Assembly: GCA_051874695.1 (NCBI GenBank)
Contig: JBJEGC010000012.1
Coordinates: 328-64,327, forward strand
Source: Candidatus Bruticola sp.
GTDB lineage: Bacteria > Vulcanimicrobiota > Xenobia > Xenobiales > Xenobiaceae
Direction: 5' to 3'
Length of the DNA: 64,000 nucleotides
The notes beneath the pieces were generated by a model that saw only the letters and a program-made list of their open reading frames with translations, did no database searches and had not been told where the DNA came from. A program made the translations under genes and the position numbers. Positions 9,883-56,512 of this stretch are shown here, piece by piece (position 1 is the stretch's first letter; each line of letters opens with the position of its first letter).

Positions 9883-9892
9883 TTATTGGCGG

Positions 9893-33777: not shown

Positions 33778-34764
33778 ATGGGTAGCGTTGCCTGTGCTTC
33801 ATCTGACAGTAATTGTGCTTACGTTCGTAGCCCTTTGACGACTCGTCCGACATGTTGTTCCAATTCTCAATTAGTTGATAGTAATTCCTTATTTGACGGT
33901 ACTACCGATTGTTATGCTGTTTCTGAGGGCAGAGTGGCTATCTTGACAGCAGAATTTTCTCAGGGCGGTGCTAGTCAATCTTCGGCCCATACGTGGCAGA
34001 TTAATAATTGCACCGATAATTGCGCCACTCTGTTTTTTGCATCTAATGTTTTAAATGATGCTGAGGCGGAGGCTCTCTCTAACGAGCAGCTGCAGGCCGA
34101 ATACGGACGCCATCAGAAAATATCCTATCAGTCGCAAACTGAGGAACAAAAATGCTTATGTCAATCGGCAGCTTTAACTCAAAGTCAAGGCGAAGCTGTA
34201 CGGATGAATGAGCTGGCCCTTAACCTTAAACAGAGTGCTGTTCAAATGAAACAATGCGCTCTAACTCAGGTAACCGTCGGAACTGCTTTATACGCTTCAG
34301 GAGTCGCCTTGGAAGCTGCTGGGAAAGCTCTTTCTGCTTGTCCTTTTTCCAAAGCGGCCGGTTTGGCTTTAATAACTAAAGGAAAGGCCATGAAGCAGCA
34401 AGGAGCAGAAATACAGCAGGCAGGAAAAAAACTTAACTTAGGGGCCAAAAATCTGCTGAATTCCGGTTTTAAGTTAGCTTCTTCTGCTTCTAGGCGGTTA
34501 AAAAAAATAGCCGATTCTTGGCAAAAATTAGGTAGTTTGTACCGTCAGGTTAAAGAAATAGGCAGTTCTGCTGAAAAAAGCATGAACTGTGTCGTCAAAG
34601 AAGGGCAGAAGCGCGGCTTAAATATGATCATTTTGCATCCAGAGCGTACTTTTATCTATAATTATGGATCTTGTGCTCCGGTTAAGAACCTGTCTCACTC
34701 CAGCACCCGGTTCGGTTTTTCTTCAGATGAGACAATATTGCCCTCAATAAGTAGCATAAAATAG
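33778..34764 (+). CDS. hypothetical Cys-rich protein with alpha-helical Ala/Lys/Gln-rich C-terminal half
   Basis: ATG preceded by a GGGGGG RBS. 10 Cys in the first 150 aa. No signal peptide or TM helix. No recognisable domain. Confidence 0.45.
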   Translation: MGSVACASSDSNCAYVRSPLTTRPTCCSNSQLVDSNSLFDGTTDCYAVSEGRVAILTAEFSQGGASQSSAHTWQINNCTDNCATLFFASNVLNDAEAEALSNEQLQAEYGRHQKISYQSQTEEQKCLCQSAALTQSQGEAVRMNELALNLKQSAVQMKQCALTQVTVGTALYASGVALEAAGKALSACPFSKAAGLALITKGKAMKQQGAEIQQAGKKLNLGAKNLLNSGFKLASSASRRLKKIADSWQKLGSLYRQVKEIGSSAEKSMNCVVKEGQKRGLNMIILHPERTFIYNYGSCAPVKNLSHSSTRFGFSSDETILPSISSIK

Positions 34765-34920
34765 TAAATAATCATATTTACATGTTATAAAAGCGCAGAT
34801 AGACGCAGTAACAGCCTGTTTTATCTGTGCTTTATCTTTGTTCTCTAGGTAAATTTTATGTCTTATTATCTATAAAAAATACAGGAAGGGCTGCAAAGCG
34901 CTAGAACTTTTCACATTACA

Positions 34921-36135: not shown

Positions 36136-36187
36136 TCAATTTTTCCAATATTAAGTTCGTACGACAAGACAATCCTTTGGAGGTCCC

Positions 36188-37384
36188 ATGCTAGATACGC
36201 TGCCTAAGCTGGATGATTCTTTCCCCAAATTAATACCTCATTTGCGCTCTTTCGTGAGCGGTTTAGAACATTGTATCGCTAATAAAGAACCTTTGCTCCA
36301 GCTGCGTGAGGAACTGCACCAGTGTGATGTGGTTATGTCCGCTTTTATACTGGCCTTCAAATACAGTGTACGCGGTTACGACTATAACGAAGAAGAATTG
36401 CCCCATATCGCCCAGGTTTATGCCGATTTTGAAGGAACAGCTGGCGTACTGTCATCCCTTATTTGCGATTTAAAGAGTGAAGATGCTGAAGGGGCGGTGC
36501 GTGACGTCAACGCCTTGGTGGAACAGCTTAAAGAAACCGAAAAGAGTTTGGCCAAGCTGGAAGAACTGAAAAAAGCCAAGACAAAAATGTCTGAGTTTGT
36601 CGGTATAGACAGTGTATTGAAAGCTGGCTTGGCCGTAGCTGAGGGGCGCCGTGAGTGGGACATGTTGGAAAATTGCTTGGATTCTCTCCGTCCGGCCTTT
36701 GAACGTTTAGTGGCCTGCAATTCCCTTCCCGACCATATAGAAGATTACTGTGAAGCTCTTGATGATCTGTTCAAAATTTGTGAACAGCAAAATTTAGAGG
36801 AACTTCCTGCTGCTTTGGAATCGTTTAAAGGCGCCAGCGAAATAATGATTGCCAAATATAATGAGGTTAAAGCCAGTAAACAAGCTAACGACAGCTCGCG
36901 CAGCTGGAATTGCCCCAAGTGTGGAGTTGACCTGGGAGAGTGGGATAAGCGTTGTCCTAAGTGCGGCTTGCGTCTGCCTGATCGCTCTGTCGTAGAACAG
37001 AATTTGAATGAATGTTGTAATTGCACAGATTTACCAGGTTGTGTGCAGATTATATTTGACAGTATAAATGGTCTTCGCGATGGCGGTGATTGTTGGAGGG
37101 CTTTCTCGGAAGGCTTGAGCGAGTATGCGGCTTTTGTAGAAGACTTAAAGTGTAAGTACGCTTCTTTGCCGGAAAGCGCCTTCAATAGTTCTTCTTCTGC
37201 AGGTGAGGCTTTAATTTTGTCCCGTGAAGCTGTTGAAGAAGGTTTAACTAAGCTTGAAAACGCCTATTACGTGTGTGAGCATATGCAGAATGGCGGAGAA
37301 GTTACCGATGAAGAACTGGATGCCGCTTTGGAAAATATGGTTGAAGGAGTAGAACAGACTCGTCAAATAACTAGTATGGTCTAG
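36188..37384 (+). CDS. hypothetical protein, paralog B of tandem pair with central zinc ribbon
   Basis: Same architecture as 34921-36135, at about 25-30% identity. The WNCPKCGVDLGEWDKRCPKCGLRLP ribbon lies between two alpha-helical domains. Confidence 0.6.
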   Translation: MLDTLPKLDDSFPKLIPHLRSFVSGLEHCIANKEPLLQLREELHQCDVVMSAFILAFKYSVRGYDYNEEELPHIAQVYADFEGTAGVLSSLICDLKSEDAEGAVRDVNALVEQLKETEKSLAKLEELKKAKTKMSEFVGIDSVLKAGLAVAEGRREWDMLENCLDSLRPAFERLVACNSLPDHIEDYCEALDDLFKICEQQNLEELPAALESFKGASEIMIAKYNEVKASKQANDSSRSWNCPKCGVDLGEWDKRCPKCGLRLPDRSVVEQNLNECCNCTDLPGCVQIIFDSINGLRDGGDCWRAFSEGLSEYAAFVEDLKCKYASLPESAFNSSSSAGEALILSREAVEEGLTKLENAYYVCEHMQNGGEVTDEELDAALENMVEGVEQTRQITSMV

Positions 37385-38695: not shown

Positions 38696-41017
38696 TTACT
38701 CAAACATTGAATCGAGTTCTGCCATCTTAAACTTCTCCGGTTCATGGCCGGTCCAATCTATTACAAAGTATGTACGACAAGGTAGGGTCATTTTGCTAAA
38801 ATAGCGTATTTGTTGGGTAGGAATCATTTTTTTGTACCCATAATACCAGCCTACAGGAACAGGTGGAGTGTTAGAGCCTTTATTGCACAGATGGCGGGTC
38901 CCTTTAGGAAAAAAGGGCATAACTCTGGCACTAAAAGAATTACCTACAACTTTACATCCCATGTCGCTACGCATAACGAAGTGAAGGTGAGGCGCAAAGA
39001 GCAAACTGCTGCCAAATTCAATAGTGACCTCCGGGTCTCCGCAGCTTATCGTATCCCTGATAACCAACATTTGCTGATTCGATTTTAAGAGCAGCTCGCG
39101 TCCAATGCTTATAAGCATTCCGTTGTTGAGCTTGGCTTGTCGCTTGGCTTTAAAAATAATGTCTCCACCAAGCGTACTTCTGTAGAGCGGGGAGCAGAAT
39201 AAGCGGTTTCCCTTATCAATATCTTCTATAGAGTCGGGGCACAAACTCGCTTCGCTGCTATTAAGATCTTCCTGACGCGCCACCTCAAAAGGTCTAATTT
39301 CACCTTTGATAACGGGAGTTGAATGTGAGAAAAAGCTATTTAAGTAAGCGGAAGTTTTACCATAATAGTCAGGGAAGCCGGAGTCTATTAAGAAAGGCTC
39401 ACCCTTCACATTAACAATCACTGACAAGAAATCGCAATGAGTCGCTTTGGGACTGGCAGCTTGATTAGGGGGATTATAGAAATCTCGGCTGTAGTTTCTT
39501 GGCTGGCATCCTCTAATAATAGCCTGGGAGCCAGATTCTTCCCAAGTGTCTCTGACAACTCCCAAACCTGCAGCTGAAAAATAAAACTGATTTGTCTTAG
39601 GAGCATAGGGAATAATCTGGTTGAACATTTCCGAGGCGTTAGGACCTACCCACCACAGAAGTTCACCAGGCATATTTTTGATGGCATAGGACCATTGACC
39701 GCAGTTCAAGGCGATAGCCCCCAAACATAGCAGATTCTGCGCATATTCAAAACTTGAGTAGGCAAATCGGCCTAAAAATCCGGGAGGACTATAAGTTCCT
39801 ATGTTAGGGATGAGTGGATGTGGTACAGGCTTGCTCGTTTTCGCTGTTCCGTCAGTATTTTGAAAGGGATTATAGCTTATATGCTTGATAACTCTGTTCG
39901 TTCCGCTTATGGCTTGTAGGGCCTGGAGAGCCTTAATGCAAGCTTCTGTCAGAAAAACCGGGGGAGACGTTTGGGTGCGCATATGCTGCACAATAGGCAG
40001 AAGTAGCCATTCCATAGCGGAACAGTGGACGCATAGGGAAGCACTAAGATGCAATCCGTTGCTGTCAAATTCCCTTTTTATAAGCTCAGGTAATTTAGAT
40101 TTCGCTAAATTCTGCCATCGTTCAGCCAGCTTAAGCTCCGGGAAATTGACGGCAAACATGTATAGGCAGGAAGCTGCTGGCAACGATAAGGTCTGATCGT
40201 GCGTCAGGTGCCAGCTTAAGGCCGATGCATGTAAGATCATGGTCTTAAGGACTTCTGCAAACAGAACTGGAGTTACAACCCGACTGTTCAGGCACATATT
40301 GATAGCTATCATCCAGTTCATCAGACGCACCGCTACAGTATCGAAATTGAGCCAGTTAACCCCTATCCAGAGAGGGTTGCTTTTGCTCCAGCTGATCGCC
40401 TGTATCATTACTTCTGCGGCGTAATTGTCTTGTTGAGCCAGCCAAAAAGAGCGCGCTAGTGTCAAAAAATGAAAATGCTGATTTAAATCCCAAGTACGAT
40501 CGAAAGAGACAAAACCGCCGCGCTGTTTTTCGCTATCGGAATAGAGTTCCTTTAGGAGTTTTTTTACGTGAATGTTGGGACAACTGCCTGAGTGGAAGTC
40601 GTAGAACCAGTCTATATCTTGGCCTAAAGCTACAGGTTTTTCTGTATCGTAGGGACAAAAAATATGCCTCATTGCTTGTGAGGCAGGGAGCTCTGTAGCT
40701 TTAATTACATTGGGAAAATATTCAAAACGTTCTCTGAGCAGATCTTGCTCTGAGCTGCGGAGAAAAAACACCGGAGTACTGCGGCCGCGAAAGTAATTGA
40801 GAAGTGCTTTCGCGGCCAGTTCCGGTTGTTCGTTATGATAATGATTTTTAGCTTCCCCGATTCCGCGCACATTAGAGAATTGGCCGTATAAGTAGCCGTC
40901 TTCGAGCCTGTACTCAGACTCATTCTCATAAGCGAACTCTACCTGCCCCTCTAATTTAAACAAGGGCCTGACAGGGTCTATAATACTTTTGCGAAACCAG
41001 GGAAACATTTTATTCAA
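38696..41017 (-). CDS. heparinase II/III-like (alginate-lyase-fold) family protein
   Basis: 773-aa protein. The N-terminal alpha/alpha toroid region is W/F/H-rich and the C-terminus is beta-rich, as in Hepar_II_III proteins in surface-glycan loci. Domain assignment is by recall, not by a search. Confidence 0.5.
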   Translation of the reverse strand: MNKMFPWFRKSIIDPVRPLFKLEGQVEFAYENESEYRLEDGYLYGQFSNVRGIGEAKNHYHNEQPELAAKALLNYFRGRSTPVFFLRSSEQDLLRERFEYFPNVIKATELPASQAMRHIFCPYDTEKPVALGQDIDWFYDFHSGSCPNIHVKKLLKELYSDSEKQRGGFVSFDRTWDLNQHFHFLTLARSFWLAQQDNYAAEVMIQAISWSKSNPLWIGVNWLNFDTVAVRLMNWMIAINMCLNSRVVTPVLFAEVLKTMILHASALSWHLTHDQTLSLPAASCLYMFAVNFPELKLAERWQNLAKSKLPELIKREFDSNGLHLSASLCVHCSAMEWLLLPIVQHMRTQTSPPVFLTEACIKALQALQAISGTNRVIKHISYNPFQNTDGTAKTSKPVPHPLIPNIGTYSPPGFLGRFAYSSFEYAQNLLCLGAIALNCGQWSYAIKNMPGELLWWVGPNASEMFNQIIPYAPKTNQFYFSAAGLGVVRDTWEESGSQAIIRGCQPRNYSRDFYNPPNQAASPKATHCDFLSVIVNVKGEPFLIDSGFPDYYGKTSAYLNSFFSHSTPVIKGEIRPFEVARQEDLNSSEASLCPDSIEDIDKGNRLFCSPLYRSTLGGDIIFKAKRQAKLNNGMLISIGRELLLKSNQQMLVIRDTISCGDPEVTIEFGSSLLFAPHLHFVMRSDMGCKVVGNSFSARVMPFFPKGTRHLCNKGSNTPPVPVGWYYGYKKMIPTQQIRYFSKMTLPCRTYFVIDWTGHEPEKFKMAELDSMFE

Positions 41018-41029
41018 AGAGATACTCTC

Positions 41030-42133
41030 CTATGCGCGGAAAAAACTCTTAATTGCAGCTGCTACGGTATCAATTTGTTCATCGGTAAGCTCAGGGAACA
41101 TGGGCAAGGACATGACCTCTTTCTGAAGCTGTTCACAAACAGGGAGAGAGCCCTCCTTCATTCCGCTGGCTGCAAAAGTTTTCTGCAAGTGGAGGCAAAC
41201 CGGATAGTAGATGGCTGGGCCTACGCCATTGGCGCGCATATGCTCGAAGAGCTCGTCGCGCTTAGGAACACGAATCGTGTACTGATGGAAAACATGGCGG
41301 TAGCCTTCGCGTTCAATAGGAGTAATTAACCCTTCAATACCTTGTAAAGCCTCGGTGTATTTTTTAGCAACAGCGCGCCTTTTATCATTCCATTCGGGGA
41401 CGTGCCTTAACTTCACACGCAAAGCGGCGGCTTGAATTTCATCCAGTCGGCTGTTGGTACCTAAAATTTCGTGGTAATAGCGCACTTTGCTGCCATGACC
41501 GCGCAACATTTGCAGTTTCTCGAAGTAAGTGTCGCTGTTCGTCAGAACCATGCCGCCATCACCGATACCGCCTAAGTTCTTGCTGGGGAAGAACGAGAAG
41601 CAGCTCATATCACCGAATCCGCCGACCTTTTGTCCGTTGATTTCGGCACCGGTAGCTTGGGCACAGTCTTCAATGAGAGCTAAACTGTGCTCTTGACAGA
41701 TAGCCTTAATAGCGGAAATATCTGCTGCGTGTCCATAAAGATGAACGCAGATAACCGCCTTAGTATTAGGAGTTATAGCTTTTTTAAGACTTTCCGGATC
41801 TAAAGAAAAAGTGTGGGGATCAATATCAGCGAAGACTACTTTAGAACCGGCTAAAGCGACAGCGCCGGCGGAAGCAACAAAAGTGAACGAAGGGACGATC
41901 ACTTCATCTTCAGCTTTCAAATCGAGGGCTCTGACTGCCAACTGTAAAGCGTCGGTGCCGTTGCCTACGCCGATACCGTGCTTTACTCCGTTCCAAGCGG
42001 CAAACTCTTCTTCAAAAGCTTTTACTTCGGGGCCTAGAACGTAGGCTGTAGAGCGCAGAACTTTCAGTACCGCCTCTTCCAACTCATTTTGAATTTGAGA
42101 GTACTGAGTGCGAAGCTCTAAAATAGGGATCAT
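41030..42133 (-). CDS. DegT/DnrJ/EryC1/StrS-family PLP-dependent sugar aminotransferase
   Basis: GNGTDALQLAVRAL, VIVPSFTFVASAGAV, FSFFPSKNLGGIGDGGMV (PLP-binding Lys region) and NSRLDEIQAA. Confidence 0.85.
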   Translation of the reverse strand: MIPILELRTQYSQIQNELEEAVLKVLRSTAYVLGPEVKAFEEEFAAWNGVKHGIGVGNGTDALQLAVRALDLKAEDEVIVPSFTFVASAGAVALAGSKVVFADIDPHTFSLDPESLKKAITPNTKAVICVHLYGHAADISAIKAICQEHSLALIEDCAQATGAEINGQKVGGFGDMSCFSFFPSKNLGGIGDGGMVLTNSDTYFEKLQMLRGHGSKVRYYHEILGTNSRLDEIQAAALRVKLRHVPEWNDKRRAVAKKYTEALQGIEGLITPIEREGYRHVFHQYTIRVPKRDELFEHMRANGVGPAIYYPVCLHLQKTFAASGMKEGSLPVCEQLQKEVMSLPMFPELTDEQIDTVAAAIKSFFRA

Positions 42134-46080: not shown

Positions 46081-46386
46081 CTAACGGCGGGCACCGCCAT
46101 GGTTCTTGAAACATTCGCTACAGTAAATAGGTTTGTCGTTGCGGGGACGGAAAGGCACTTTGGCCGTTTGGCCGCACTCTGCACAGATTACTTCGAACAT
46201 TTCACGAGTACCGTTGGAACGGCCTAAGTCGCCATTTTCGCGGTTACGTTTGTGAATGCGGCGGCATTCTGGGCAGCGCCGGGGGTCACTGGAAAAACCT
46301 TTAGACGCATAAAATTCTTGTTCTCCGGCAGTGAAGACAAAATCGTTTCCACAGTCGCAGCAGGTTAAAGTACGATCAGAAAACAC
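46081..46386 (-). CDS. double zinc-ribbon protein
   Basis: Two CxxC...CxxC units (CCDCG...CPECRR; CAECG...CSECF), each with FxAxEQxFY-like spacing. Confidence 0.5.
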   Translation of the reverse strand: MFSDRTLTCCDCGNDFVFTAGEQEFYASKGFSSDPRRCPECRRIHKRNRENGDLGRSNGTREMFEVICAECGQTAKVPFRPRNDKPIYCSECFKNHGGARR

Positions 46387-47196
46387 TCAAATTCCCTCCA
46401 ATAAGGAACATAGCCAACGGGAACGCGAGCTTCGTAAGACATATTTCCCACAGTCTGAACAACTTAGAAAACTTAGGACACTAACAAGCCAAATTCGCGG
46501 CTCGCGACGGTCCATATGGTCGGCATCAGAGTACTTTATTTGATTTCGCACTTAGACGCACTTCCAGCCCTTATTCCTATGTGTGCTGTAAACCGTTTAT
46601 TTTGTAGCTATGATCGCAATAATAACTGAAAAAAACTTGCAAAGTTTAAAGCGTCCGTATAGTTGCAGTCCATGTCTGCATAGCCGCAGAAAGTATCCTT
46701 TCGGCAATGGCACTGGAGACGAAAATATTACAGATTAAACTTCCAAACTCGTATTTACAAGTAAAAATACAATTAAATGCAATCAAAAAAACAATTAGCA
46801 CTAAGGAAAGCCGCAGCTTTAATTCCAATTCGCATTGAGATTGTAAAACGGCTAAAAAGAGTAGTCAAGGACTCGAACTGTCGAAATGTTCCCCAAAAAT
46901 TAATCTAAGAAAGTTGTTTTTCAGTAATTTAAGCTTATTCTGCACTAATAAAATCGATAAAAACGTATATTTATATTCGTTTCTGCAAATTGTACGTATT
47001 AATGTAAGCAGATTATTTTTTTTATTAGATAAATACGTAAGTATTTTCAGCAGACAGTTAGAGCTACGAGTGACATTTTTGTCTGTTTTTGTGAAGCAAA
47101 ATAACTGAATATAAGCTTTTGAAGATAATTCAGCTGTCTGCACCAGCTTGATTTGCTGCAAGTTTGGGCTGATGCAGGCAGTTAATGTCAGCATAA

Positions 47197-48912
47197 TCAC
47201 TGACTAATGAGCTTGCGCAAATCGCCATACTGTCTGATTTTAAACCAAGTCAGTTCTCCGTTAAGTAGGTATCGCCAGGCGACTGCGCCCATTTTTAGGA
47301 AGTTAGCTGCCCAAGCTAGTATAAACGGGACATGCCAGTGAAGCTTAAAATACTCACGGTGTTTGAGCAAAAAGCGGATAAAGCTTTTAGGAACGAATGA
47401 TTTGGAGACTAGGCAATAAACAGCCAAGTAAAAGCGATCTTCAGGGCTGCGCGGCCAGTCCATGGAGACGCGGAACTGCTTCCAAGCTTTATTGTTCAGC
47501 CCTTCCACTTGATTGGCATTAATTTTCCCTTCAGCCAAAAGGCGTTTGGTAATAGCTGTGCCGGGGAAATAATTTAGAGAGTAGAAATAAATGTCGTAGG
47601 GGCGTTCCAGAGCTAACAAAAACTGAGCTGTTTCTAGCTTCATTTCTTCCGAAGCCCAAGGGTTGTCAATAATAAGATCGTAAACCGCATTGATATTTAG
47701 TTCTTTATTGAATTTAGAAAAAGCCAAAATATTGTTGTTACCCGGCACTCTGTTATGTACGGCTAAGCTTTCTTGAGGAGAGCCACTCTCAATGCCAGTT
47801 TGTAGGCGTACTAACCCGGCTTTCTTGAGTTTCTCCAAGAAAGGACGTTTCAGCATGGGGGGAATAAGCATGCATTCGAAGGGAAGGTGAATGCGCTGCG
47901 GATACTTGGTGCAGAATTCATCTACCCATGCGGCCGGAGCAGCAAAAGCTGTATCATCATCTATTTTTACTCTGGCCAGGCGAGGAAAACGATCTTTTAT
48001 ATATTCAAGTTCACCCAATATGTGCTCAACTGAGCGCAAGCGGTAAAACTTTTGCTTATCTGCGGCAAATTTTTCGCGCAAAATAGATACATAACAGTAA
48101 GAGCAATTGTAGGGACAGCCTCTAGAACAATAAATGCGGTATTCTGCCGTACGTTTCCAAGGCTCTTCATTATGAATAGTTTTATCTTCAATATAAAATT
48201 TATTAAAGTCGTCTATGTCGGGATAGGGAAGCTCATCCAAATTGGCAATAAGCGGGCGCATATCATTTCTGAAAATTTGCCCGTTGATCTTGGCCCAAAT
48301 ATTGGGAATATTGCCGGTAAACTGATGATTGTATAGCGCTTCGCACAAGTCGATTAGGGGAGCTTCTCCTTCTCCAAGGCAGATGTAGTCTGCATAATCG
48401 AGAGCCCCTTCAGGTACAGCCGTAACATGAATCCCTCCCCAACAAATTGGTAAGTTTGGAAAACGTTCTTTTAAACGTACAGTGAGCTTTTCTGCCATGG
48501 AAAGCAGGCTGGAAATAAAACCTATACCTATAAAATTTGCTTTTTTCTCATCAATAATTTTGAAAACTAACTCTAGCTCTTCGGCGGAAGGCATCTCTAA
48601 TTTGTTGTTGACCCAGTCTCTCAGGAATATCAAATTCACTTCAAAACCTGCGCGGCGCAGAGCTGCCGATAAATAACGCAGGCCCGAATTTTCCACGCTG
48701 TACATGGCTATGAGGGCTACGCTAAATTTTTTGGGCTGACCGTACCAGCCTGATTTGGGAGCCCAAGGAGCTTGAGGATTTTGGACTGATGAACCTACGG
48801 CAGGATTAAAAACTGCTTCAGCAGATCCTGGAGAGGCTCCAGGAACTGAGGCAATTTGCTCTTTGCACTCATTCTGTATATTCTGTATAGTTTGGATAGA
48901 TGAATCTAACAT
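47197..48912 (-). CDS. B12-binding-domain radical SAM protein (class B)
   Basis: Cobalamin-binding region (...IGIGFISSLL...PICWGGIHVTAVPE...YICLGEGE), then YCSRGCPYNCSYC (CxxxCxxC). Confidence 0.8.
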   Translation of the reverse strand: MLDSSIQTIQNIQNECKEQIASVPGASPGSAEAVFNPAVGSSVQNPQAPWAPKSGWYGQPKKFSVALIAMYSVENSGLRYLSAALRRAGFEVNLIFLRDWVNNKLEMPSAEELELVFKIIDEKKANFIGIGFISSLLSMAEKLTVRLKERFPNLPICWGGIHVTAVPEGALDYADYICLGEGEAPLIDLCEALYNHQFTGNIPNIWAKINGQIFRNDMRPLIANLDELPYPDIDDFNKFYIEDKTIHNEEPWKRTAEYRIYCSRGCPYNCSYCYVSILREKFAADKQKFYRLRSVEHILGELEYIKDRFPRLARVKIDDDTAFAAPAAWVDEFCTKYPQRIHLPFECMLIPPMLKRPFLEKLKKAGLVRLQTGIESGSPQESLAVHNRVPGNNNILAFSKFNKELNINAVYDLIIDNPWASEEMKLETAQFLLALERPYDIYFYSLNYFPGTAITKRLLAEGKINANQVEGLNNKAWKQFRVSMDWPRSPEDRFYLAVYCLVSKSFVPKSFIRFLLKHREYFKLHWHVPFILAWAANFLKMGAVAWRYLLNGELTWFKIRQYGDLRKLISQ

Positions 48913-50084
48913 AGTGGAGGAACCTTTTTTATTATTTCTGCTAATTCTGAAGGTGAGGGTAGTTGCTTATCCGGAAAACGACGGAAGTTTAGGTTGAGGG
49001 CATTTATAAAAGATGAGCTGTTATGCATAGTTAAGGCTATTTCCCACCAGCAAGGACGGAAACAAGCTTGACAGTTGCGGCGTAGTTCCTTTATTTTGGC
49101 CAGATTGCGTTGGTGTTTATACCAGCTTATAAAGTTGTCTTCATATACTTTGGGGTGATCTTCAGGAGATTCGTCTTGAAAATGGCACATGGAACAGCGT
49201 CCGTCCGGGCTGACAGAGAAGCTGAGAGTGCCCGTTTGGCAGTCGATCCCAGTTCCCCAAAAGTTCGCATTGAGTGAAGCTGATTTCTCTGGGGAAGTCT
49301 CTTGACATCCGCACTTTAAGAAATTAATCATAGCCTTCAGATAAGGCATAGAGTTAAAAATAGGAGAATGGGACTGCTTTTTCAGCCTGCACAGATATTC
49401 TAACAGACAATCCAGTTTGGCTTCATCTTGGCTGGCAAAACGCATATCTTCCGAATCGGGGGAGCAGCTGAGAATTTCACCCTGATAGCTGTGCTTTTCT
49501 AAAGGCACCAAAGATAGATAAAAATTGTAAGCTTTGGCAATGGCCACCATTTGGGGAATGTCATTTATGTTGCGTGCTGATACCACGCAGTTTAATATGC
49601 CGGTACCTGATCTTTTCTGTATATAAGAAGACCAGAAACGGACTCGCTCAATAATTTTCGCCCAAATTTCCGGCTTATGACAAATTTCACTCTGCACTTG
49701 AGGATTAGGCGTATCTAACGATATAGATATGTGGCGCAGACCTGCAGCGGCTACCGCCTCATGTAGATCCGGAGAACCTGCTAGAGCATTAGTAAGAACT
49801 CGGGTTTCAATACCGTTATTGATAAAAGCAGCGACAATTTGCGGTAAGTCTGAGCGCAAAAAAGGCTCCCCGCCGCCTAATGATATGGCCGTTGTGCCCA
49901 GTTGACGGAAGTGGCTGGCCGCAGTCTCGATTTGTTCTAAACTGAGCTCCTCATCTTTGTTGCCTTTTTTCCATAAACCGCACATGGCGCAAGTTAAATT
50001 GCATCGATGAGTTAGACCAAAGTGTACGTAAATAGGCGTATTACCACCGATTATAGCTTTCAGAACCGGCCAAGGGTTTCTCAT
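48906..50084 (-). CDS. radical SAM protein with SPASM/twitch-like Cys-rich C-terminal domain
   Basis: HRCNLTCAMC (CxxxCxxC) and GGGEPFL. The C-terminal half has 9 or more Cys (CGCQ...CQTG...CSMCH...CQACFRPC). 7-nt overlap with the downstream gene. Confidence 0.75.
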   Translation of the reverse strand: MRNPWPVLKAIIGGNTPIYVHFGLTHRCNLTCAMCGLWKKGNKDEELSLEQIETAASHFRQLGTTAISLGGGEPFLRSDLPQIVAAFINNGIETRVLTNALAGSPDLHEAVAAAGLRHISISLDTPNPQVQSEICHKPEIWAKIIERVRFWSSYIQKRSGTGILNCVVSARNINDIPQMVAIAKAYNFYLSLVPLEKHSYQGEILSCSPDSEDMRFASQDEAKLDCLLEYLCRLKKQSHSPIFNSMPYLKAMINFLKCGCQETSPEKSASLNANFWGTGIDCQTGTLSFSVSPDGRCSMCHFQDESPEDHPKVYEDNFISWYKHQRNLAKIKELRRNCQACFRPCWWEIALTMHNSSSFINALNLNFRRFPDKQLPSPSELAEIIKKVPPLC

Positions 50085-51538
50085 AATTTTAAAATCTCCC
50101 AGCCGGCTTTTAATTTGCGGGCCATGTCGTGGAAATTTTTCAGCTCCAGCAGTTTGCGGAACATCTGTTTGGGACGCAGGTAGAAGCGTTTAAAGGCCTG
50201 ATCGCACAGAGAGCTTAATTCAGCAGCGCTGAAAAATTCCGTCCAGACTTGCGGCTTAAAGTTAGGATACGGATTGGCTAGGAATTGATCCCAATGATTA
50301 GGATCGAGTATGCCCTTCTCAATGCCCTGATTATAAACTAACGTGTTGGGATAGGGAGTCAAAATACCGAAGAGAGCGTAGTCCGGATCTAGAGAAATGG
50401 CAAAATCGACAGTTTTGTTTATTTCATCTAGAGAACTATCGTGGGGGCAGCCTATCATAAAGTAGCATACGGTGGTTAAGCCTTCGTCGGTAAGCATATT
50501 AAAAGCTTGGCGCACTTTCGCTGTAGTTAAATTTTTGTTGAGCGCTTTCATTCCCTCGTCGGTGCCAGATTCTACTCCGATATGCACCCGAGTACATCCT
50601 GCACTGCGCATGGCCTTCACTGTTTCTGGAGTGATACAGTTGGCTCTGGCTCTGATATTCCAGTTAACTTTTATGGAACGCTTTTTGATCTCGCTGCATA
50701 TGGCTAAAACGCGATCTTGGCGCACATTGAAAGTGTCGTCTACAATATATACTTCGTGGACTCCCAGCTTAGCACACTCAGCCAACTCGTCCACTACTGA
50801 TTCCGCACTGCGCCATCTCCAGGTTGTGCGCCCGGGGGTATTGCAGAATGAGCATTTGTAGGGACAGCCGCGGCTGGTTAACAACGAAGTGGCGACAGCT
50901 TCACTGCCTAGTACATAGCTGTATTTGCGATAATCGAGAATTTCACGCCGAGGAAAAGGCAAACTATCTAAATCGGCTATGGGGGGACGGGTTGGGGTTT
51001 GTACAATTTGCTGTTGTTCGTTTTTAAAATATATACCGTTTATTTTTTGCAGATTGTTGGCCAAAGTTTGGCTGTCGTACCCGGATTCTTCATTCCAGGC
51101 TGCTGTATGAGCGGCTACAACTTCTGTAAAAGCTTCTTCTCCTTCAAAAGGAATGCAGCCGTCTACGCAGCTGTATTTCATACACTGAGCGGGAAAATCA
51201 GAAACGTGAGGACCACCCCAAAATATTCTTACTCTGCTTCCCAGCTCTTCTTTGGCTATCTGGGAAGTTTGCATCATATCGATTAAATCGTGAGTATGTC
51301 CGGTTATACCTACAACTTGAGGTCGGTAATCAGCTATGATTTTGCGCAGGTGAGTGCTGTGAAGGTGGTCGGCCAGGCAATCGACTATGCGCACTTCCGA
51401 CTGAGAATATTTATGCAGATGAGCCTCTAGATACATTAATCCCAAAGGCGGTATAGTGTTTGTTTCAGCGTTGACTGTGGTAGGGACTTCTGAGGATATG
51501 CTGTTGTCGCGCGGCGGGTTAATTAAAAGTATCTTCAT
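50081..51538 (-). CDS. B12-binding-domain radical SAM protein (class B)
   Basis: MKILLINPP B12-domain start, then SRGCPYKCSFCNTP. 4-nt overlap with the downstream gene. Confidence 0.8.
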   Translation of the reverse strand: MKILLINPPRDNSISSEVPTTVNAETNTIPPLGLMYLEAHLHKYSQSEVRIVDCLADHLHSTHLRKIIADYRPQVVGITGHTHDLIDMMQTSQIAKEELGSRVRIFWGGPHVSDFPAQCMKYSCVDGCIPFEGEEAFTEVVAAHTAAWNEESGYDSQTLANNLQKINGIYFKNEQQQIVQTPTRPPIADLDSLPFPRREILDYRKYSYVLGSEAVATSLLTSRGCPYKCSFCNTPGRTTWRWRSAESVVDELAECAKLGVHEVYIVDDTFNVRQDRVLAICSEIKKRSIKVNWNIRARANCITPETVKAMRSAGCTRVHIGVESGTDEGMKALNKNLTTAKVRQAFNMLTDEGLTTVCYFMIGCPHDSSLDEINKTVDFAISLDPDYALFGILTPYPNTLVYNQGIEKGILDPNHWDQFLANPYPNFKPQVWTEFFSAAELSSLCDQAFKRFYLRPKQMFRKLLELKNFHDMARKLKAGWEILKL

Positions 51539-51600
51539 AAAATTTCCTATAATGAAAGATCACAATCGCTGACAGAATTAAGATAACTATTTATAAGCTG

Positions 51601-52632
51601 CTATTTTTGGCTCAATCTGCTGCCCATGGCCATAACCCACTGCATTATGGTTCGGTGATTGAGTGAGAAAAGCAGATTATATTCCGTAAAACAGGTTGCA
51701 GAGCAACTATGGCAGGGAAGAGGCTGGCTGCTGACTTGAGAGGCAGCTTCAGCAAATCCTAGCTCCAGAGCACTGGGACCGGGTTTATCTCCTATCAACA
51801 GAGAACAAGGGTAAAGACGACCGTCGGCGTCTATATTTAGATAAAACCGTCCGGCCCAGCATTTACTCCAGCCAATACCTCCTTGGACAGAAGTATTTTG
51901 GCTGAAGTCTTGCCAATTCAAAAGATGATCTAGGCATTGAATTGAATTGCCGATCCTGCGCCCCCTTAGTTTAGCTTCTTTTAGATAGCGCAGACAATCT
52001 TTATATTCTTGGTCGGAAGGACGCAGAGGGTTGTTAACGCCAAAATGTTCACTGTGATGCAGAACTTGAAATGTAGGAGTGAAGTTGTACTTGTCAGCCT
52101 GGTCTAGTATCCACTCTACTTTGTTAATGTTATTTGAAGTTAGTACAGTAATGGTCCAAAGAGCTACTTGACTGGCTGAGGCTGTTTCCACCGCAGCCAT
52201 AGCCTTGGCAAAAGATCCAGGTTCTCGGTTGGCATCGTGAGCTTCTTCCGGGCCGTCTAACGAAATAATTAGGTGGTCAAGTTCTTTCAGCAGAGAGGCT
52301 TTTTGAGGAACCAGATAGCCGTTTGTGTCTAAAGTTGTATATAAACCAGAGTGCCTGGCATAAGCGACCAGCTCTTCAATGTCACTGCGCAGTAAAGGTT
52401 CTCCTCCCCAGATTCCCAATCGCTGAATTCCGAAGTCGGCCATCTGTTTGATGAGTGTTTTTATCTGCTCCGTTGTTAGTTCAGGTTGTTTTCTGGCAGG
52501 AATTTTGCAGTAGCGGCAGCGCGACTGACAGGTGTTATTTGTGGCTATAGTTGCAAAAATAGGGCGAGGCGAACCAGTAAGGCGTCCCTTTAGAACCGCC
52601 GCTCCTGCTTTGGCCATGGTTATAAATTTCAT
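51601..52632 (-). CDS. radical SAM protein with SPASM/twitch-like C-terminal Cys cluster
   Basis: CQSRCRYC (CxxxCxxC), GGEPLL, and C-terminal CWAG...YPCSLL...CHSCSATC. Confidence 0.75.
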   Translation of the reverse strand: MKFITMAKAGAAVLKGRLTGSPRPIFATIATNNTCQSRCRYCKIPARKQPELTTEQIKTLIKQMADFGIQRLGIWGGEPLLRSDIEELVAYARHSGLYTTLDTNGYLVPQKASLLKELDHLIISLDGPEEAHDANREPGSFAKAMAAVETASASQVALWTITVLTSNNINKVEWILDQADKYNFTPTFQVLHHSEHFGVNNPLRPSDQEYKDCLRYLKEAKLRGRRIGNSIQCLDHLLNWQDFSQNTSVQGGIGWSKCWAGRFYLNIDADGRLYPCSLLIGDKPGPSALELGFAEAASQVSSQPLPCHSCSATCFTEYNLLFSLNHRTIMQWVMAMGSRLSQK

Positions 52633-52747
52633 ATGGTTTTTCTTTGCCTGACTGTGAATTAAGATTTATAAGTAAATTTGGCCCAAGCGGAAGCGGACAC
52701 AAAGTTTACACCGCAGAGAACTGTTCACCACCGATTGTATCTTGAAC

Positions 52748-54763
52748 TTACGTCTTGTCGTTGTCTGAAGCAAGTTTAGAAGCACGATTGCTTATTTCTG
52801 CACTTCCAGACGGGCCCAAAGCCGGACTTTTGCGCAGAGCCAAGATATTCTTTGCGACAGAAGAGGCTACCGGGCGTGGCGATGCAGGAGCTGCTGAGGG
52901 GCGATCTGCGTTCGATAAAGATGCAGATGCCGGGCGTCCGGTATTAGGATGGGGTAATGACGAGTGTCGTCCAGCTACCGAAGGCGGCAGAGGCGGAGCG
53001 GTAGGACGGGGGGCTGGGGATGGAGCAGGCCGCCCAGCGGCGGAGCGAGGGAGAGGCGGAGCAGTGGGGCGGGTGCTTGGTGCTGAAACCTGGCGCTCAG
53101 CGGTTGAAGGAGGTAGTGGCGGAGCTACCGGGGGCTTGGATAGTATTGATGTTGACTGTGTCGTTGCGGCGTGGGGCAGTGGCGGAGCGGCCGACTGCCT
53201 AGGCTGTGCTGAAGCCGACGGTTGAGTTAATTTTGCAGAAGAAGATAACGGAAGTGCAGCCGAGCGATCAGACATTAAGTCTGAGACTGCAGCTGGACTA
53301 ACTGCCGGAGATTCTGTTGAAGTATGTTCCTCTGCTGAGGATTCGTCGGAACCTAAATGGTAAATTGACTGCTTATCGGGCTTAGGACGCCTGCGCGATG
53401 AATAACTGGGAGAAGGTACATTGTTGTTTTGGTAAATTACATCTTGCGGTTTTTCTTCCTTAACTATAGGCAAGTTGAACTCTTTGTTTCCTCCGTAGTG
53501 GAGAACCGTATCGAGTGAATATCTGCATCCTTTAACGATACGCTCCAAATCGGAGTCTTTCAGGCGCGGATATATGGGTAAGTGAAGTTGGGTACGTGCC
53601 AACAAATTAGTGGTTGTTAGCTTGCTAGTGTAACTCACCGATTCCGAGAACATGGGAATTTGCTGAACAGGCTTCAGATAACCTGGGGAGGTATCGACAC
53701 TGTGGCTAGACAGTTGACGGGCTAACTTCTCGTTTTCGATGTGGCCAACAACGAATGAGGTGAAAACTGATTCTCCGTAAGACGGATATTTGGGAATAAC
53801 TAATCCGGGTAACTTGGCTTGTTGTAAAAGTTCAATAAGTTTTTTTCCGTTCTGAGTGCGCTGTTTGTTCTGTTCGTCGGCCCACTCCAGTAGGCGTCTT
53901 CCCAAAGCAGCTTGAACCGGCGAAGGTTTGGAGCTTATATCGGGAGCGTTGGTATTAATGCTGTCTTCAAACATGCTGTGCAGCGTATCTTTTCCTAGGA
54001 AAGACCAGCCGACACTAAGAAGAACGTAGGCACTTAAAGTGAAACCTACTGTGGTAGTGCCTGCCCACATAGCGGCCGCTTTGAAAATTTTGGGATAAAT
54101 GGAAGAACTGGGGGTAATATATGAATCTTCCATGCGCAGAGAAGCTACTTCTGCTAAATGTTCGTTTTGGAAGACGGCCATGCCACCGCCTAAGGTAGTA
54201 AAGTTCTTGGTCAGAGCAAATGAGAATATGGCGGCGTCACCGAAAGTACCGACCTTTTTTCCGTTGACAGAAGCTCCGAAGCCTTGGGCACAATCTTCTA
54301 TGACTACAATACTTTTGCTCCTGGCAATGGCTGCCAGTTCTTCTACCGGAGCAGGACATCCGTACATGTGGGTAATAATGACGGCTGAGACACCTTCCCA
54401 GTCTTCATCACTTATGGTCTCCGGCCCCATTACCCAGCTGCCTTCACGTATGTCTACTAAGTGAGGCTGTAGGCCGGCTGCAATAATAACCGAGGGTATA
54501 GAATGATGTGTCCAAGCGGGAATGATTACTTTGGAATGCGGAGCAAAATTTAGGCACTGCAGTATCAGATAAAGGGCCCCGCGAGCAGAGTTCATGTAAA
54601 TAGCTTTTTTAACGCCTAAAAACTCCGCAAATTTATTTTCAAATTTTTCAATTTCGCTATCTCTGGCGTTGTTAATTTCGCTGATAAGCCATTGAATATC
54701 GGTTAGGCCCAGTGCTAAATCAAACCTTGGAATAGGCCATCCGTTCTTTAAAACATTAGACAT
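52748..54763 (-). CDS. DegT-family aminotransferase domain fused to a 250-aa proline-rich tandem-repeat tail
   Basis: N-terminal 430 aa: DegT fold (CAQGFGASVNGKKVGTFGDAAIFSFALTKNFTTLGGGM). C-terminus: four repeats of the form (T/V/A)APPLP(x)S..GR. Confidence 0.7.
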   Translation of the reverse strand: MSNVLKNGWPIPRFDLALGLTDIQWLISEINNARDSEIEKFENKFAEFLGVKKAIYMNSARGALYLILQCLNFAPHSKVIIPAWTHHSIPSVIIAAGLQPHLVDIREGSWVMGPETISDEDWEGVSAVIITHMYGCPAPVEELAAIARSKSIVVIEDCAQGFGASVNGKKVGTFGDAAIFSFALTKNFTTLGGGMAVFQNEHLAEVASLRMEDSYITPSSSIYPKIFKAAAMWAGTTTVGFTLSAYVLLSVGWSFLGKDTLHSMFEDSINTNAPDISSKPSPVQAALGRRLLEWADEQNKQRTQNGKKLIELLQQAKLPGLVIPKYPSYGESVFTSFVVGHIENEKLARQLSSHSVDTSPGYLKPVQQIPMFSESVSYTSKLTTTNLLARTQLHLPIYPRLKDSDLERIVKGCRYSLDTVLHYGGNKEFNLPIVKEEKPQDVIYQNNNVPSPSYSSRRRPKPDKQSIYHLGSDESSAEEHTSTESPAVSPAAVSDLMSDRSAALPLSSSAKLTQPSASAQPRQSAAPPLPHAATTQSTSILSKPPVAPPLPPSTAERQVSAPSTRPTAPPLPRSAAGRPAPSPAPRPTAPPLPPSVAGRHSSLPHPNTGRPASASLSNADRPSAAPASPRPVASSVAKNILALRKSPALGPSGSAEISNRASKLASDNDKT
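52965..53230. repeat. imperfect tandem DNA repeats (about 45-50 nt units) encoding the APPLP repeats
   Basis: GGCGGCAGAGGCGGAGCGGTAGGACGGGG, AGCGAGGGAGAGGCGGAGCAGTGGGGCGGG, GAAGGAGGTAGTGGCGGAGCTACCGGGGG and GGCAGTGGCGGAGCGGCCGACTG recur in register. Confidence 0.5.
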
Positions 54764-55009
54764 TCTGCGTGTGCTGCAAATTGATCGCCCAAACTGCGAG
54801 CTCAGCCGTTTCGCTCCTTTACCCTTAGAAGGCGGTTGCCTCGACGGAAGATCAACTCCCCTTTCCTAAATTTGACAAATTTAATTTTTACAATTTATGC
54901 AATTTTCCGCTCAGTTCAAAGCCGATTTGCGGTATATACGAAATCTAAAAGACAATATAGTGCATACCACAATCGGTCTAAACCACCTTACTTCCAAATT
55001 TAGGTGATG

Positions 55010-56512
55010 CTATGAAACTTCCTTCATAACAGATTCCCCCTCTGCAGACAAATTCGTCAGCTTTTTTAGATACTTGGCGGCCGTACTTAGCGAGTTTTCT
55101 ATAGAGTGATCTAGATTGTTATACCAGAAGCGGCCGGTGCGTCCTAACAACTCCAGATTGTCGAAAGCAGAGCATTCTTTTTCTAATAGGTTGAGTCTGT
55201 CAATGTAATTGAGGCTGTAGATAGGATAGGCGTCTCTAATTTTTTCTACTTTGGCGTCAAGGACTTTAAAGCTTTCGTCAATAACGCCGACCTGCTTTAG
55301 CTCTTGAATCAGACGGGGAATAAGCTTGTCTGGATTATGCCACATGTCGTCTTGATATTGACAGGTTATTTCCAGACACAGCCCGCCCCGTCCGTCGGGA
55401 GCGCAACTTGAACTAAAGCATGATGGATTGGATATGCGAGAAAACAGCAGGTTCTTGTCACCGAAATAGCACCACTGCGAGCGATGCAGGGGAGGCTTAT
55501 CTAGCATTACTGAACAAATGAGTTGCGATCTGTAGTCTAATTGGGTAGGCGTCAGATTTAATTTGTCAGTCAGTTCGTTAATGGAGGCGCTCCAGGCCAA
55601 TTCCTGACATTCGATTTTTCCTTCAGGGGTAATCACTTCGCTAATTTTGCTCTTGCCGTTGTTGTCTGTGCTGCGTATCAAAGCAGATACTTCGCTTTGA
55701 GTTATAATTTCGCCGCCCATAGCTGTTATACGCTGTTGACAACTCTCCCAAAAAGAGCAAATGCCTCCCTCTTTGGGATAGAGAAAATTGAGCTCTGCTT
55801 TCTTGGGCAGCAGCATCAGTTTAAATATTTCAAACAGGGAAGCCGTGTTTACGTTGTCGTCGATAGTAGCCCGCTCTAATCCTATTTTCGCCCAATTGCG
55901 GTGGGTATTTTCTGTAGAGATGCCGACAAATTTCTCGGTGTAATCTTTAAAAAAAGTTTCATATAAAGTTTTTCCGTAACGGCATAACACGTAATCTTTA
56001 AAAGTGAGGCTGGAACGGCGGTTGCTTCGTCCGGTTCTGAGAATCATGTCCAAGCCGGCTTGTATAGCCACTTGGGGAGGAAGTTTGGCTATGGTCGCCA
56101 AGCGCAGAGGCCACTCATGATAGTGGCCCATAAAGTATACTTGGGAGAACCGAGGAATTTCCGCAAAGCTGTCGCCATGGACTTCTTTTAAAAACCGATT
56201 CACTTTCGGATTTTGTGAGTAGAATCGATGGGGACCTATATCGAAAGACCAATCTCCGTAGTGAAAAGTGCGCGACAGACCGCCTACTTTTTTTTCTCTC
56301 TCTATAACTACAGTAGGTAGTCCGGCCTTACACAAATAATAAGCCAACGTTAGACCGGCAGCTCCGCCTCCCACAATTACATAGCGCTTCAAGGAAGATC
56401 TCTCCAAAACAAAAATTATCTTCGGCTTATGAACTGACGGGAGCTTTATGCTTCTTACAGAGAAGTCCGGAGTTGCTCTCCGGAGTATATAAGCGCATAG
56501 CGAACTATCCAA
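55010..56512 (-). CDS. FAD-dependent oxidoreductase (amine oxidase / phytoene desaturase / UDP-galactopyranose-mutase-like Rossmann family)
   Basis: YVIVGGGAAGLTLAYYLCKAGLPTVVIEREKKVGG dinucleotide-binding motif. The true start may lie just upstream of this motif. Confidence 0.7.
   Translation of the reverse strand: MDSSLCAYILRRATPDFSVRSIKLPSVHKPKIIFVLERSSLKRYVIVGGGAAGLTLAYYLCKAGLPTVVIEREKKVGGLSRTFHYGDWSFDIGPHRFYSQNPKVNRFLKEVHGDSFAEIPRFSQVYFMGHYHEWPLRLATIAKLPPQVAIQAGLDMILRTGRSNRRSSLTFKDYVLCRYGKTLYETFFKDYTEKFVGISTENTHRNWAKIGLERATIDDNVNTASLFEIFKLMLLPKKAELNFLYPKEGGICSFWESCQQRITAMGGEIITQSEVSALIRSTDNNGKSKISEVITPEGKIECQELAWSASINELTDKLNLTPTQLDYRSQLICSVMLDKPPLHRSQWCYFGDKNLLFSRISNPSCFSSSCAPDGRGGLCLEITCQYQDDMWHNPDKLIPRLIQELKQVGVIDESFKVLDAKVEKIRDAYPIYSLNYIDRLNLLEKECSAFDNLELLGRTGRFWYNNLDHSIENSLSTAAKYLKKLTNLSAEGESVMKEVS

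Follow-up and report, generated by a model that had tools for sequence, protein, structure and literature searches.

A 64,000-nucleotide stretch of contig JBJEGC010000012.1 from Candidatus Bruticola sp., hereafter the window, carries six consecutive intact open reading frames (ORFs) on its minus strand (47197–56392) that encode, in order, a flavoprotein, a DegT-family aminotransferase with a proline-rich tail, a twitch-type radical S-adenosylmethionine (rSAM) enzyme, a B12-binding rSAM enzyme, a second twitch-type rSAM enzyme and a second B12-binding one (Table 1). Bruticola belongs to the class Xenobia of the Vulcanimicrobiota (Eremiobacterota); the window has a GC content of 42–49%, its protein rSAM343 is 100% identical to one from an NCBI 'Candidatus Bruticola sp.' metagenome-assembled genome (MAG), and B12_571 and the flavoprotein share 90% identity with proteins from another Bruticola MAG. 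ORF and Pfam analysis upheld the gene order, the two B12-binding enzymes and the joining of the DegT domain to a proline-rich tail given in a preliminary description of this DNA, and corrected its placing of overlaps among the middle three genes: it is the last three that overlap, B12_485 with rSAM392 by 4 nucleotides and rSAM392 with B12_571 by 7, rSAM392 thus overlapping both its neighbours, and the remaining gaps in the unit measure 62 (rSAM343 to B12_485), 115 and 246 nucleotides. All six proteins contain Pfam domains above the gathering score, and the CxxxCxxC motif is intact in each of the four rSAM enzymes; together with the intact pyridoxal-phosphate (PLP) lysine of the DegT enzyme, this indicates that the genes are not the pseudogenized paralogues that had been considered. 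Nor do they fall into a known pathway family: in an NCBIfam search none of the six proteins reached a curated cut-off, the scores lying far below, and no equivalog was found; full-text literature searches returned no description of such a cluster, so that the early failure to match the set to a known pathway still holds.

Table 1. Coordinates (window numbering) of the six-gene unit and of its downstream boundary
Feature	Position	Strand	Basis
UGM-superfamily flavoprotein (FAD500)	55010–56392	−	Pfam NAD_binding_8 / Amino_oxidase; mechanical ORF extends to TTG at 56512
DegT/DnrJ/EryC1/StrS PLP aminotransferase domain, residues 1–410	53534–54763	−	Pfam PF01041, 211.6 bits against a cut-off of 19.8
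Pro/Ser/Ala-rich C-terminal tail of DegT, residues 411–671 and stop	52748–53533	−	Composition, repeats
Twitch-type rSAM enzyme (rSAM343)	51601–52632	−	Pfam Radical_SAM and Fer4_12; CQSRCRYC at 52507–52530
B12-binding rSAM enzyme (B12_485)	50081–51538	−	PF02310 58.5 bits and PF04055 90 bits; CPYKCSFC at 50843–50866
Second twitch-type rSAM enzyme (rSAM392)	48906–50084	−	Pfam Radical_SAM; CNLTCAMC at 49980–50003
B12-binding rSAM enzyme (B12_571), last gene of the unit	47197–48912	−	PF02310 53 bits and PF04055 44.6 bits; CPYNCSYC at 48094–48117
Downstream boundary, outside the system	46840–46868	−	Conserved TTGACT-17-TACAAT promoter and leader of the next gene

Scanning 185,579 species genomes for the B12_571 family and metagenomes for the rSAM343 family yielded related loci, 171 in all with those reached through flavoprotein homologues (labelled L; ORFs on high-GC loci were called with a GC3 filter). 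At least six further assemblies (L007, from UBP9 UBA6111, and L008, L009, L090, L091 and L093) carry these six genes in unchanged order, the six-gene loci spanning a GC content of 0.44–0.69, and partial copies lie at contig ends in L006, L089, L092 and L096–L098. Between the window and L007, which has a GC content of 67% against ~45% in the window, identity is 52% for the flavoprotein, 42% for DegT, 63% for rSAM343, 61% for B12_485, 42% for rSAM392 and 66% for B12_571. Conservation of the cluster exceeds chance, and as the flanking genes differ between lineages, the six-gene block constitutes a conserved module. Five MAGs among the loci (L008, L009, L013, L017 and L027) are labelled Burkholderiales or Enterobacterales; these bin labels look unreliable, because gene content and GC match UBP9 or Myxococcota-type loci.

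Homologues of rSAM343 at 40–55% identity are widespread in MAGs of uncultured anaerobes (Firmicutes, Armatimonadota, Omnitrophota and Fermentibacteria), and at the 83 loci anchored on this protein the other core homologues are frequently co-located: the flavoprotein at 33, a B12_485-like gene at 28, DegT at 23, an rSAM392-like gene at 15 and a B12_571-like gene at 12. Further genes recur with them, namely a Zn-ribbon rSAM enzyme resembling Tes/TrsS (27 loci; Zn-ribbon PF23545, 114 bits to Tes), a U32 protein (UbiU/TrhP-like; 16) and a UbiV-like protein of ~262 amino acids (12); since many of the anchored contigs are short, all these counts are lower bounds. In the long forms (L088, L109, L130, L136, L146, L148 and L171) nine to twelve of these genes stand in a row, with the addition of a GNAT acetyltransferase and sometimes of an IOR-like 2-oxoacid:ferredoxin oxidoreductase; the window holds the six-gene short form. 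The commonest Pfam families among 126 non-core neighbouring ORFs were PMT_2 (5), GNAT (5), glycosyltransferase family 2 (GT2; 4), DUF2079 (4), TPR, POR/IOR (3) and GT1 (2). The association with glycosyltransferases and GNAT recurs at loci reached separately, by way of flavoprotein homologues: a PMT-type gene of the GT-C fold overlaps the start of the flavoprotein gene in L169, with GNAT adjacent; YfhO, GT2 and DUF6541 lie beside the cluster in L170; and in L171 PMT and LPG_synthase_TM stand directly upstream of a flavoprotein–DegT–rSAM–U32–B12–rSAM–B12 series. The GT-C families near homologous clusters are PMT_2, DUF2079 and YfhO, and this company of GT-C, GT2 and GNAT genes favours the cell-surface glycan that the preliminary description had offered as one option.

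The start of the flavoprotein is most likely 56392 (460 amino acids), because the source assembly calls it there and protein-level conservation begins at that point. Described earlier as an FAD dehydrogenase, the protein proves by fold and profile to belong to the UDP-galactopyranose mutase (UGM) superfamily. When its AlphaFold2 model (mean predicted confidence, pLDDT, 86) was compared with the PDB by Foldseek, ranks 1–34 were all UGMs (template-modelling score, TM, 0.80; E 5e-28), and protoporphyrinogen oxidases (PPOs) formed the second fold class (TM 0.74). A family profile built from 16 members placed UGMs in the first 21 ranks and aligned Trypanosoma cruzi UGM over its full length (E 2e-30; positions 3–443 of 456), whereas desaturases, amino-acid oxidases and PPOs matched in the N-terminal dinucleotide fold alone, the PPO match spanning ~120 N-terminal residues. 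The window protein has a GGGAAG dinucleotide fold (56354–56371), GPHRF (56222–56236) and GRTGRFWYNN (55115–55144), and the family holds invariant G53-P-H55, F317-x-R319 and G417-R-x-G-x-F-W-Y-N-N-x-D428, which align in UGMs with the histidine loop, with the arginine of FYR and with the motif GRFGAWRY..NQD. In UGM structures the residues at these motifs contact the flavin and the UDP, and given the alignment a nucleotide sugar is the most economical substrate to assume. Fold, full-length profile and the three hallmark motifs (GxH loop, FxR and GRxGxW/FxY..N.D) thus assign the predicted protein to the superfamily of UDP-galactopyranose mutase (Glf/UGM), from which it differs in its identity of ~18%, in a score of 36.9 bits against the 303.75 required for the Glf equivalog TIGR00031, and in belonging to the uncharacterised PRK07208-type group (260 bits; cut-off 389). 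Its activity may be that of a mutase or a redox enzyme, both compatible with its sequence and fold.

The second ORF (52748–54763, minus strand) consists of the DegT aminotransferase domain and a 260-residue tail. The Schiff-base lysine, K186 in SFALTK (codon 54206–54208), is kept in relatives, and the best PDB relative is the glutamine:scyllo-inositol transaminase 7b0d (E 2e-35), other best solved relatives being QdtB and BtrS-type enzymes, that is, sugar and cyclitol aminotransferases including 2-deoxy-scyllo-inosose aminotransferases; NCBIfam offered PseC at 120 bits against a cut-off of 423, and no equivalog. The tail (17% Pro, 18% Ser, 14% Ala) contains four degenerate 21-residue (63-nucleotide) repeats, each with APPLP, at 52965–53188; their 63-nucleotide periodicity emerged with a seed-based repeat finder, and Tandem Repeats Finder reported no tandem repeat in the tail. 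Repeat number is four in the window and in L090 and two in L089 (tails at ~9400–9970 and ~3000–3470, respectively), and the tail terminates in a conserved VASS(V/L)AKNILALRK segment. Motifs of the APPLPP type are reminiscent of proline-rich ligands in eukaryotes, and the bacterium itself is animal-associated.

The proline-rich tail sits where high-GC relatives have a short linker (...ATRARPST-MKFSTMVRAG...) followed by a fused rSAM domain: in L007 (5173–7446), L008, L009 and L091, DegT and rSAM343 form one uninterrupted in-frame ORF of 757–766 amino acids, and in the Bruticola-like genus they are separate genes. This fusion argues that the PLP enzyme and the rSAM enzyme would act consecutively on the same molecule.

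That rSAM partner, rSAM343, is a paralogue of rSAM392 (~25% identity). Both share the C-terminal cysteine spacing C-x17-C...C-x2-C-x3-C, with five conserved cysteines at residues 258, 276, 307, 310 and 314 in rSAM343 (51691–51861) and at residues 282, 300, 338, 341 and 345 in rSAM392 (49050–49241). The preliminary description had left them as SPASM or twitch enzymes. This cysteine pattern and top structural matches to BlsE and SkfB bear out the second term; the first does not stand, as neither protein has the seven-cysteine SPASM motif (CX9-15GX4C...CX2CX5CX3C...C) or a match to PF13186. We therefore regard both as twitch-like, with a single predicted auxiliary cluster. The nearest solved structure to rSAM343, the fused type, is BlsE, followed by SkfB and SuiB; its NCBIfam matches include PqqE, SkfB, the mycofactocin maturase and StsB at 76–80 bits and AhbD and NirJ at ~80 bits, and rSAM392 shows a weak match to Tes. 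Judged by closeness to BtrN in sequence or structure together with the context of a 2-deoxystreptamine pathway (2-deoxy-scyllo-inosose (DOI) synthase), no BtrN-type rSAM dehydrogenase was recognised.

Both B12-domain proteins present an N-terminal PF02310 domain followed by an rSAM core with CxxxCxxC and are class B rSAM enzymes by domain architecture that may bind cobalamin and transfer methyl groups; some class B members, such as AprD4, do neither. For B12_485 the best NCBIfam models are BchE (184.6 bits; cut-off 481) and HpnJ (174 bits; cut-off 578), followed by TIGR04072, 'lipid biosynthesis B12-binding/radical SAM' (130 bits), and HpnR (96 bits), and in the PDB it comes closest to AprD4, an rSAM diol dehydratase (E 1.5e-31). 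B12_571 scores best with HpnJ (90.8 bits), matches ApyD and RiPP (ribosomally synthesized peptide with post-translational modifications) C-methyltransferase models, and found no relative below E 1e-3 in a PDB search. No cut-off of a named B12-rSAM equivalog was reached (BchE, HpnJ, HpnR, PhpK, BzaD, ApyD and the TIGR04072 ladderane/lipid family). The B12_571 family is unusually conserved, with 57–66% identity between the window protein and Myxococcota-type and UBP9 MAG proteins and a mean column identity of 70% in an alignment of Eremiobacterota and Myxococcota-type MAGs; more distant paralogues (30–42% identity) number in the thousands. Eremiobacterota members carry an N-terminal extension of 45–60 residues with PWAP(K/R)xGW (~60 residues with PWAPKSGW in the window protein) that is absent from Myxococcota-type orthologues.

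In the Myxococcota-type MAGs the B12_485-like and B12_571 genes form a pair alone, with no sugar-type gene nearby. At these loci (MAGs labelled Myxococcota or 'Deltaproteobacteria'; L002, L004 and L010–L028) the gene after the B12_571 orthologue (57–63% identity) encodes a conserved acidic protein of 80–120 amino acids (for example L004:4541–4846 and L019 ~11544–11858), and the next one often a 7Fe-type ferredoxin. This small protein, found at 16 loci, all within that group, has no Pfam match; its motifs are MGLRxRIK at the N terminus, EEAxHPGRPxPH in the middle and (P/F)W(Y/F)LxGxxDxxGWDxTNP at the C terminus, and the B12 enzyme may act on it or work together with it. The PWAP(K/R)xGW extension loosely recalls its C-terminal W..GW motif. 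A link to diaminopimelate, raised by dapF and dapD in the neighbourhood of the pair, was rejected as lineage synteny. Many Omnitrophota, Anaerolineae, Planctomycetia and DPANN loci (L029–L085, for example L035, L046, L059 and L085) contain three to six paralogous genes for B12-domain rSAM enzymes, placed next to one another in arrays.

The data show directly that the genes are linked, that DegT and rSAM343 are fused in relatives, that the proteins belong to the superfamilies named and keep their cofactor motifs intact, and that glycosyltransferases and GNAT lie nearby in relatives; from this we infer a substrate and every chemical step of a pathway for which we judge the case to be evenly balanced, namely that the six genes are one operon-like module which, independently of O2 and of NAD-dependent chemistry, tailors an activated sugar (nucleotide-linked, perhaps polyprenyl-phosphate-linked at a later stage) destined for an envelope glycoconjugate. 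In the pathway that we propose, the flavoprotein would bind a nucleoside-diphosphate sugar and carry out a pyranose/furanose mutase-type or related flavin-dependent rearrangement. Next, rSAM343 would abstract a hydrogen atom from the sugar to give a keto sugar, either by two-electron oxidation (BtrN-like) or by radical 1,2-diol dehydration (AprD4-like), with its single auxiliary [4Fe-4S] cluster taking up an electron, and DegT would transaminate the ketone to an amine, which GNAT could N-acetylate in the longer clusters. The two B12 rSAM enzymes and rSAM392 would then alter unactivated carbons, candidate reactions being C-methylation (GenK/Fom3-type), deoxygenation (AprD4-type), ring contraction (HpnJ-type) and epimerisation. 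Finally, glycosyltransferases unlinked here and adjacent in homologous clusters (GT2 and GT-C) would transfer the product onto an acceptor in the envelope, in the manner of Arn.

Known systems supply precedents for this logic. BtrN is a twitch rSAM enzyme with a four-cysteine auxiliary cluster that converts an aminocyclitol hydroxyl to a ketone (PMC9012708), and in the butirosin (2-deoxystreptamine) pathway BtrN and BtrS(R) make up the same pairing, oxidation of a carbinol to a ketone by a twitch rSAM enzyme followed by amination by a DegT-family enzyme (PMC9012708), a logic which the Cys spacing (C-x17-C...C-x2-C) and the DegT–rSAM fusion of our module fit. BlsE of blasticidin S biosynthesis, a twitch rSAM enzyme acting on cytosylglucuronic acid, is the nearest structure to rSAM343, but identity is 18–19%, the score with NCBIfam's BlsE model is 52.6 bits where 400 are required, and no other blasticidin genes are present. 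The sugar-acting class B enzymes GenK/Fom3, AprD4 and HpnJ have the same architecture as B12_485 and B12_571, for which HpnJ is the second-best and the best NCBIfam model, respectively, though the pair scores 90–185 bits against cut-offs of 480–580 and B12_571 forms a tightly conserved family of its own. HpnJ has been proposed to contract a glucosamine ring (PMC13459092), and this proposed reaction is the nearest lipid-linked precedent for the carbon-modifying step. The Arn system (PmrHFIJKLM), which makes lipid A aminoarabinose, resembles the homologous loci in combining a DegT enzyme acting on a keto-sugar nucleotide, a GT2 enzyme transferring to polyprenyl phosphate and a GT-C enzyme (PMT_2/ArnT-type); it differs in forming the keto sugar by the NAD-dependent ArnA, where we propose radical SAM chemistry, and in lacking the four rSAM enzymes and UGM-like flavoprotein of our module. 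Arn-like GT2 and GT-C genes are absent from the 64-kb window and present beside homologous clusters in L169, L170, L171 and others.

A wider claim is more tentative, and we rate it as possible but somewhat doubtful: that the window shows, in its short form, an undescribed anaerobic pathway that is widespread among many uncultured phyla (Eremiobacterota, Omnitrophota, Fermentibacteria, Armatimonadota and Firmicutes MAGs) and in which the UGM-like flavoprotein, the fused rSAM/PLP 'hydroxyl-to-amine' enzyme and several B12 rSAM enzymes would build a new, heavily C-modified (branched, deoxy or carbocyclic) amino sugar that is put on the envelope by GT-C enzymes.

Several observations weigh against sugar tailoring. 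The substrate is one that we infer for enzymes none of which attains an equivalog cut-off; the 64-kb window has no glycosyltransferase, nucleotidyltransferase or flippase; and the enrichment of glycosyltransferases beside homologous clusters is a bare count, not a statistical test. It is hard to see what the Tes/TrsS-like rSAM enzyme, the U32 protein and the IOR-like oxidoreductase of the long forms would do in sugar chemistry; to our knowledge, every U32 hydroxylase characterised so far has aromatic carbons as its target. The lone Myxococcota-type pair, with its small acidic protein and ferredoxin in place of sugar-type neighbours, leaves room for a substrate of another kind, such as a peptide, in the case of those two B12 enzymes.

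Modification of lipid tails or polyprenoids is the alternative that survives best, and we consider it unlikely. Here the rSAM enzymes would methylate, cross-link or cyclise chains as do Tes, Grs and HpnP/R-like enzymes, and the flavoprotein would be a desaturase of the phytoene-desaturase/HpnE type. The HpnJ, TIGR04072 and HpnR matches of B12_485, the weak Tes match of rSAM392, the Tes/TrsS-like enzyme of the longer clusters and the LPG_synthase_TM gene adjoining the cluster in L171 all point this way, but every one of the family matches lies far under its curated cut-off, and the flavoprotein, which resembles desaturases in its N-terminal fold only, resembles UGMs over its full length. Chain modification, moreover, gives no role to the DegT fusion and the GNAT partners, and genes for fatty-acid synthase, acyl carrier protein, squalene, hopene or isoprenoid synthesis are absent from the window and from the recurrent neighbours.

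We think it improbable that the cluster matures a peptide made on the ribosome, or a redox cofactor derived from a peptide, with PqqE/MftC/SkfB-like twitch or SPASM rSAM enzymes and B12-rSAM peptide C-methylases. This would accommodate the PqqE, SkfB, mycofactocin-maturase and StsB matches of rSAM343 and its structural neighbours SkfB and SuiB, the ApyD and RiPP C-methyltransferase matches of B12_571, the small protein that follows B12_571 orthologues in Myxococcota-type loci, and an M28 peptidase gene that ends L109 and L136. A precursor, which the preliminary description had suggested seeking in the flanking DNA, did not appear: among the ORFs of at least 20 amino acids listed in 46387–47196, and in the intergenic DNA aligned with close relatives, there was no conserved small ORF in or beside the cluster, the conserved intergenic piece being a promoter only. 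A hidden Markov model of the Myxococcota small protein, run against the six-frame window and the 171 loci, matched in Myxococcota-type loci only, with nothing in the window or in the six-gene or long clusters. In both twitch enzymes CxxxCxxC starts at residue 28–35, which leaves no room for an N-terminal RiPP recognition element domain, and neither an N-terminal extension before the rSAM motif nor a PqqD match was found. Nor would peptide maturation account for a UGM-like flavoprotein, for the fusion of DegT or for glycosyltransferases as neighbours.

A cassette tailoring a secondary metabolite, whether an aminoglycoside, an aminocyclitol or a nucleoside antibiotic, seems to us similarly improbable. 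The preliminary description had seen in the set a likeness to aminoglycoside tailoring, and its sugar-tailoring logic stands, in that the closest solved relatives (AprD4, BlsE and the scyllo-inositol and 2-deoxy-scyllo-inosose aminotransferases, 7b0d among them) come from such pathways; the antibiotic cassette is less well supported than a cell-surface glycan. As it had also reported, the window shows no glycosyltransferase, precursor peptide or core synthase, and we found in it no aminoglycoside core gene, cyclitol or inosose synthase, resistance gene, exporter or lipid synthase. The cluster lies instead among housekeeping genes (division and cell wall (dcw) genes, sua5, dnaG and rpoD), is vertically conserved within its lineage, and is widely spread in uncultured anaerobes beside envelope GT-C genes.

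Anaerobic tetrapyrrole modification by BchE-like B12 enzymes, AhbD/NirJ-like rSAM enzymes and a PPO-like flavoprotein is very improbable, for although BchE is the top NCBIfam match of B12_485, AhbD and NirJ match rSAM343, PPOs form the second fold class of the flavoprotein and some of its homologues carry the JGI label 'protoporphyrinogen oxidase', the family matches lie far under their cut-offs, DegT, GNAT and the glycosyltransferase neighbours do not fit, no further heme or chlorophyll genes lie nearby, and the flavoprotein profile, with its short N-terminal PPO match against a full-length UGM match, led us to reject it.

On one side the cluster is flanked by a divergently transcribed rsmH-ftsL-ftsI-murE block, and on the other by a run of zf_Tbcl, sua5, DUF2760 and Hsp70-like genes, beyond which lie a second DegT gene and a heparinase II/III-like gene; the remainder of the window consists of housekeeping genes (dnaG, rpoD, mutL, ackA and others). 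A functional link to the dcw genes and peptidoglycan was considered and rejected as lineage synteny, the adjacency to rsmH-ftsL-ftsI-murE being confined to the Bruticola-like genus (the window and L090) and missing from L007–L009 and L091. Downstream of the unit, alignment with close relatives revealed a sole conserved piece of intergenic DNA, the sigma-70-type promoter that serves the treble-clef zinc-finger gene zf_Tbcl (46081–46386) and thereby marks the 3' boundary of the unit. The source assembly calls a 111-amino-acid ORF directly downstream of B12_571 (46865–47200, minus strand), which, being AT-rich and lacking conservation, is probably no real gene. Searches for tRNAs and, at gathering score, for Rfam families found none in the window, L007, L009 or L091, cobalamin and SAM riboswitches included, and PADLOC detected no defence system, whether of the prokaryotic viperin type or another, only generic rSAM-core cross-matches of 54–62 bits.

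Elsewhere in the window, the second, standalone DegT protein (367 amino acids, 407 bits) and the heparinase II/III-like protein (773 amino acids) are paired at 38696–42133 (minus strand); the pair is kept in the close relative L006 (7834–11199) and may represent a separate sugar-modification pair ~5 kb from the cluster. A 491-amino-acid ORF at 2408–3883 (minus strand) matches the FHIPEP/FlhA profile only in its C-terminal half (positions 326–655 of 657) and could be a truncated or split export-gate gene of a flagellum or type III secretion system. On the plus strand, the sole match of a 1031-amino-acid ORF (4892–7987) is a weak N-terminal MerR-type one, and three successive ORFs of 351, 404 and 398 amino acids (33709–37384) have no Pfam match.

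The category that suits the locus best is that of sugar-tailoring clusters based on radical SAM chemistry, among which its gene set is without precedent; the DegT–rSAM fusion and the tightly conserved B12_571 family are of special interest. We know of rSAM enzymes acting on sugars almost only from the antibiotic pathways of actinomycetes and bacilli; similar chemistry would occur here, in Eremiobacterota of the gut and in many uncultured anaerobes beside envelope glycosyltransferases, as a conserved, primary-type module with a natural aminotransferase–rSAM fusion and a UGM-like partner. Homologues of UGM of the PRK07208 type have been labelled 'hypothetical' for years, and if our reading is right they would join the B12_571 family and the fused DegT–rSAM protein as sources of several new enzyme activities, the fusion as a new bifunctional enzyme type and B12_571 as a new class B rSAM function. 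For enzymologists the module offers a compact, testable six-gene system, and for the animal-associated Xenobia it would imply an envelope sugar not yet described, which could serve as a biomarker or as a determinant of host interaction.

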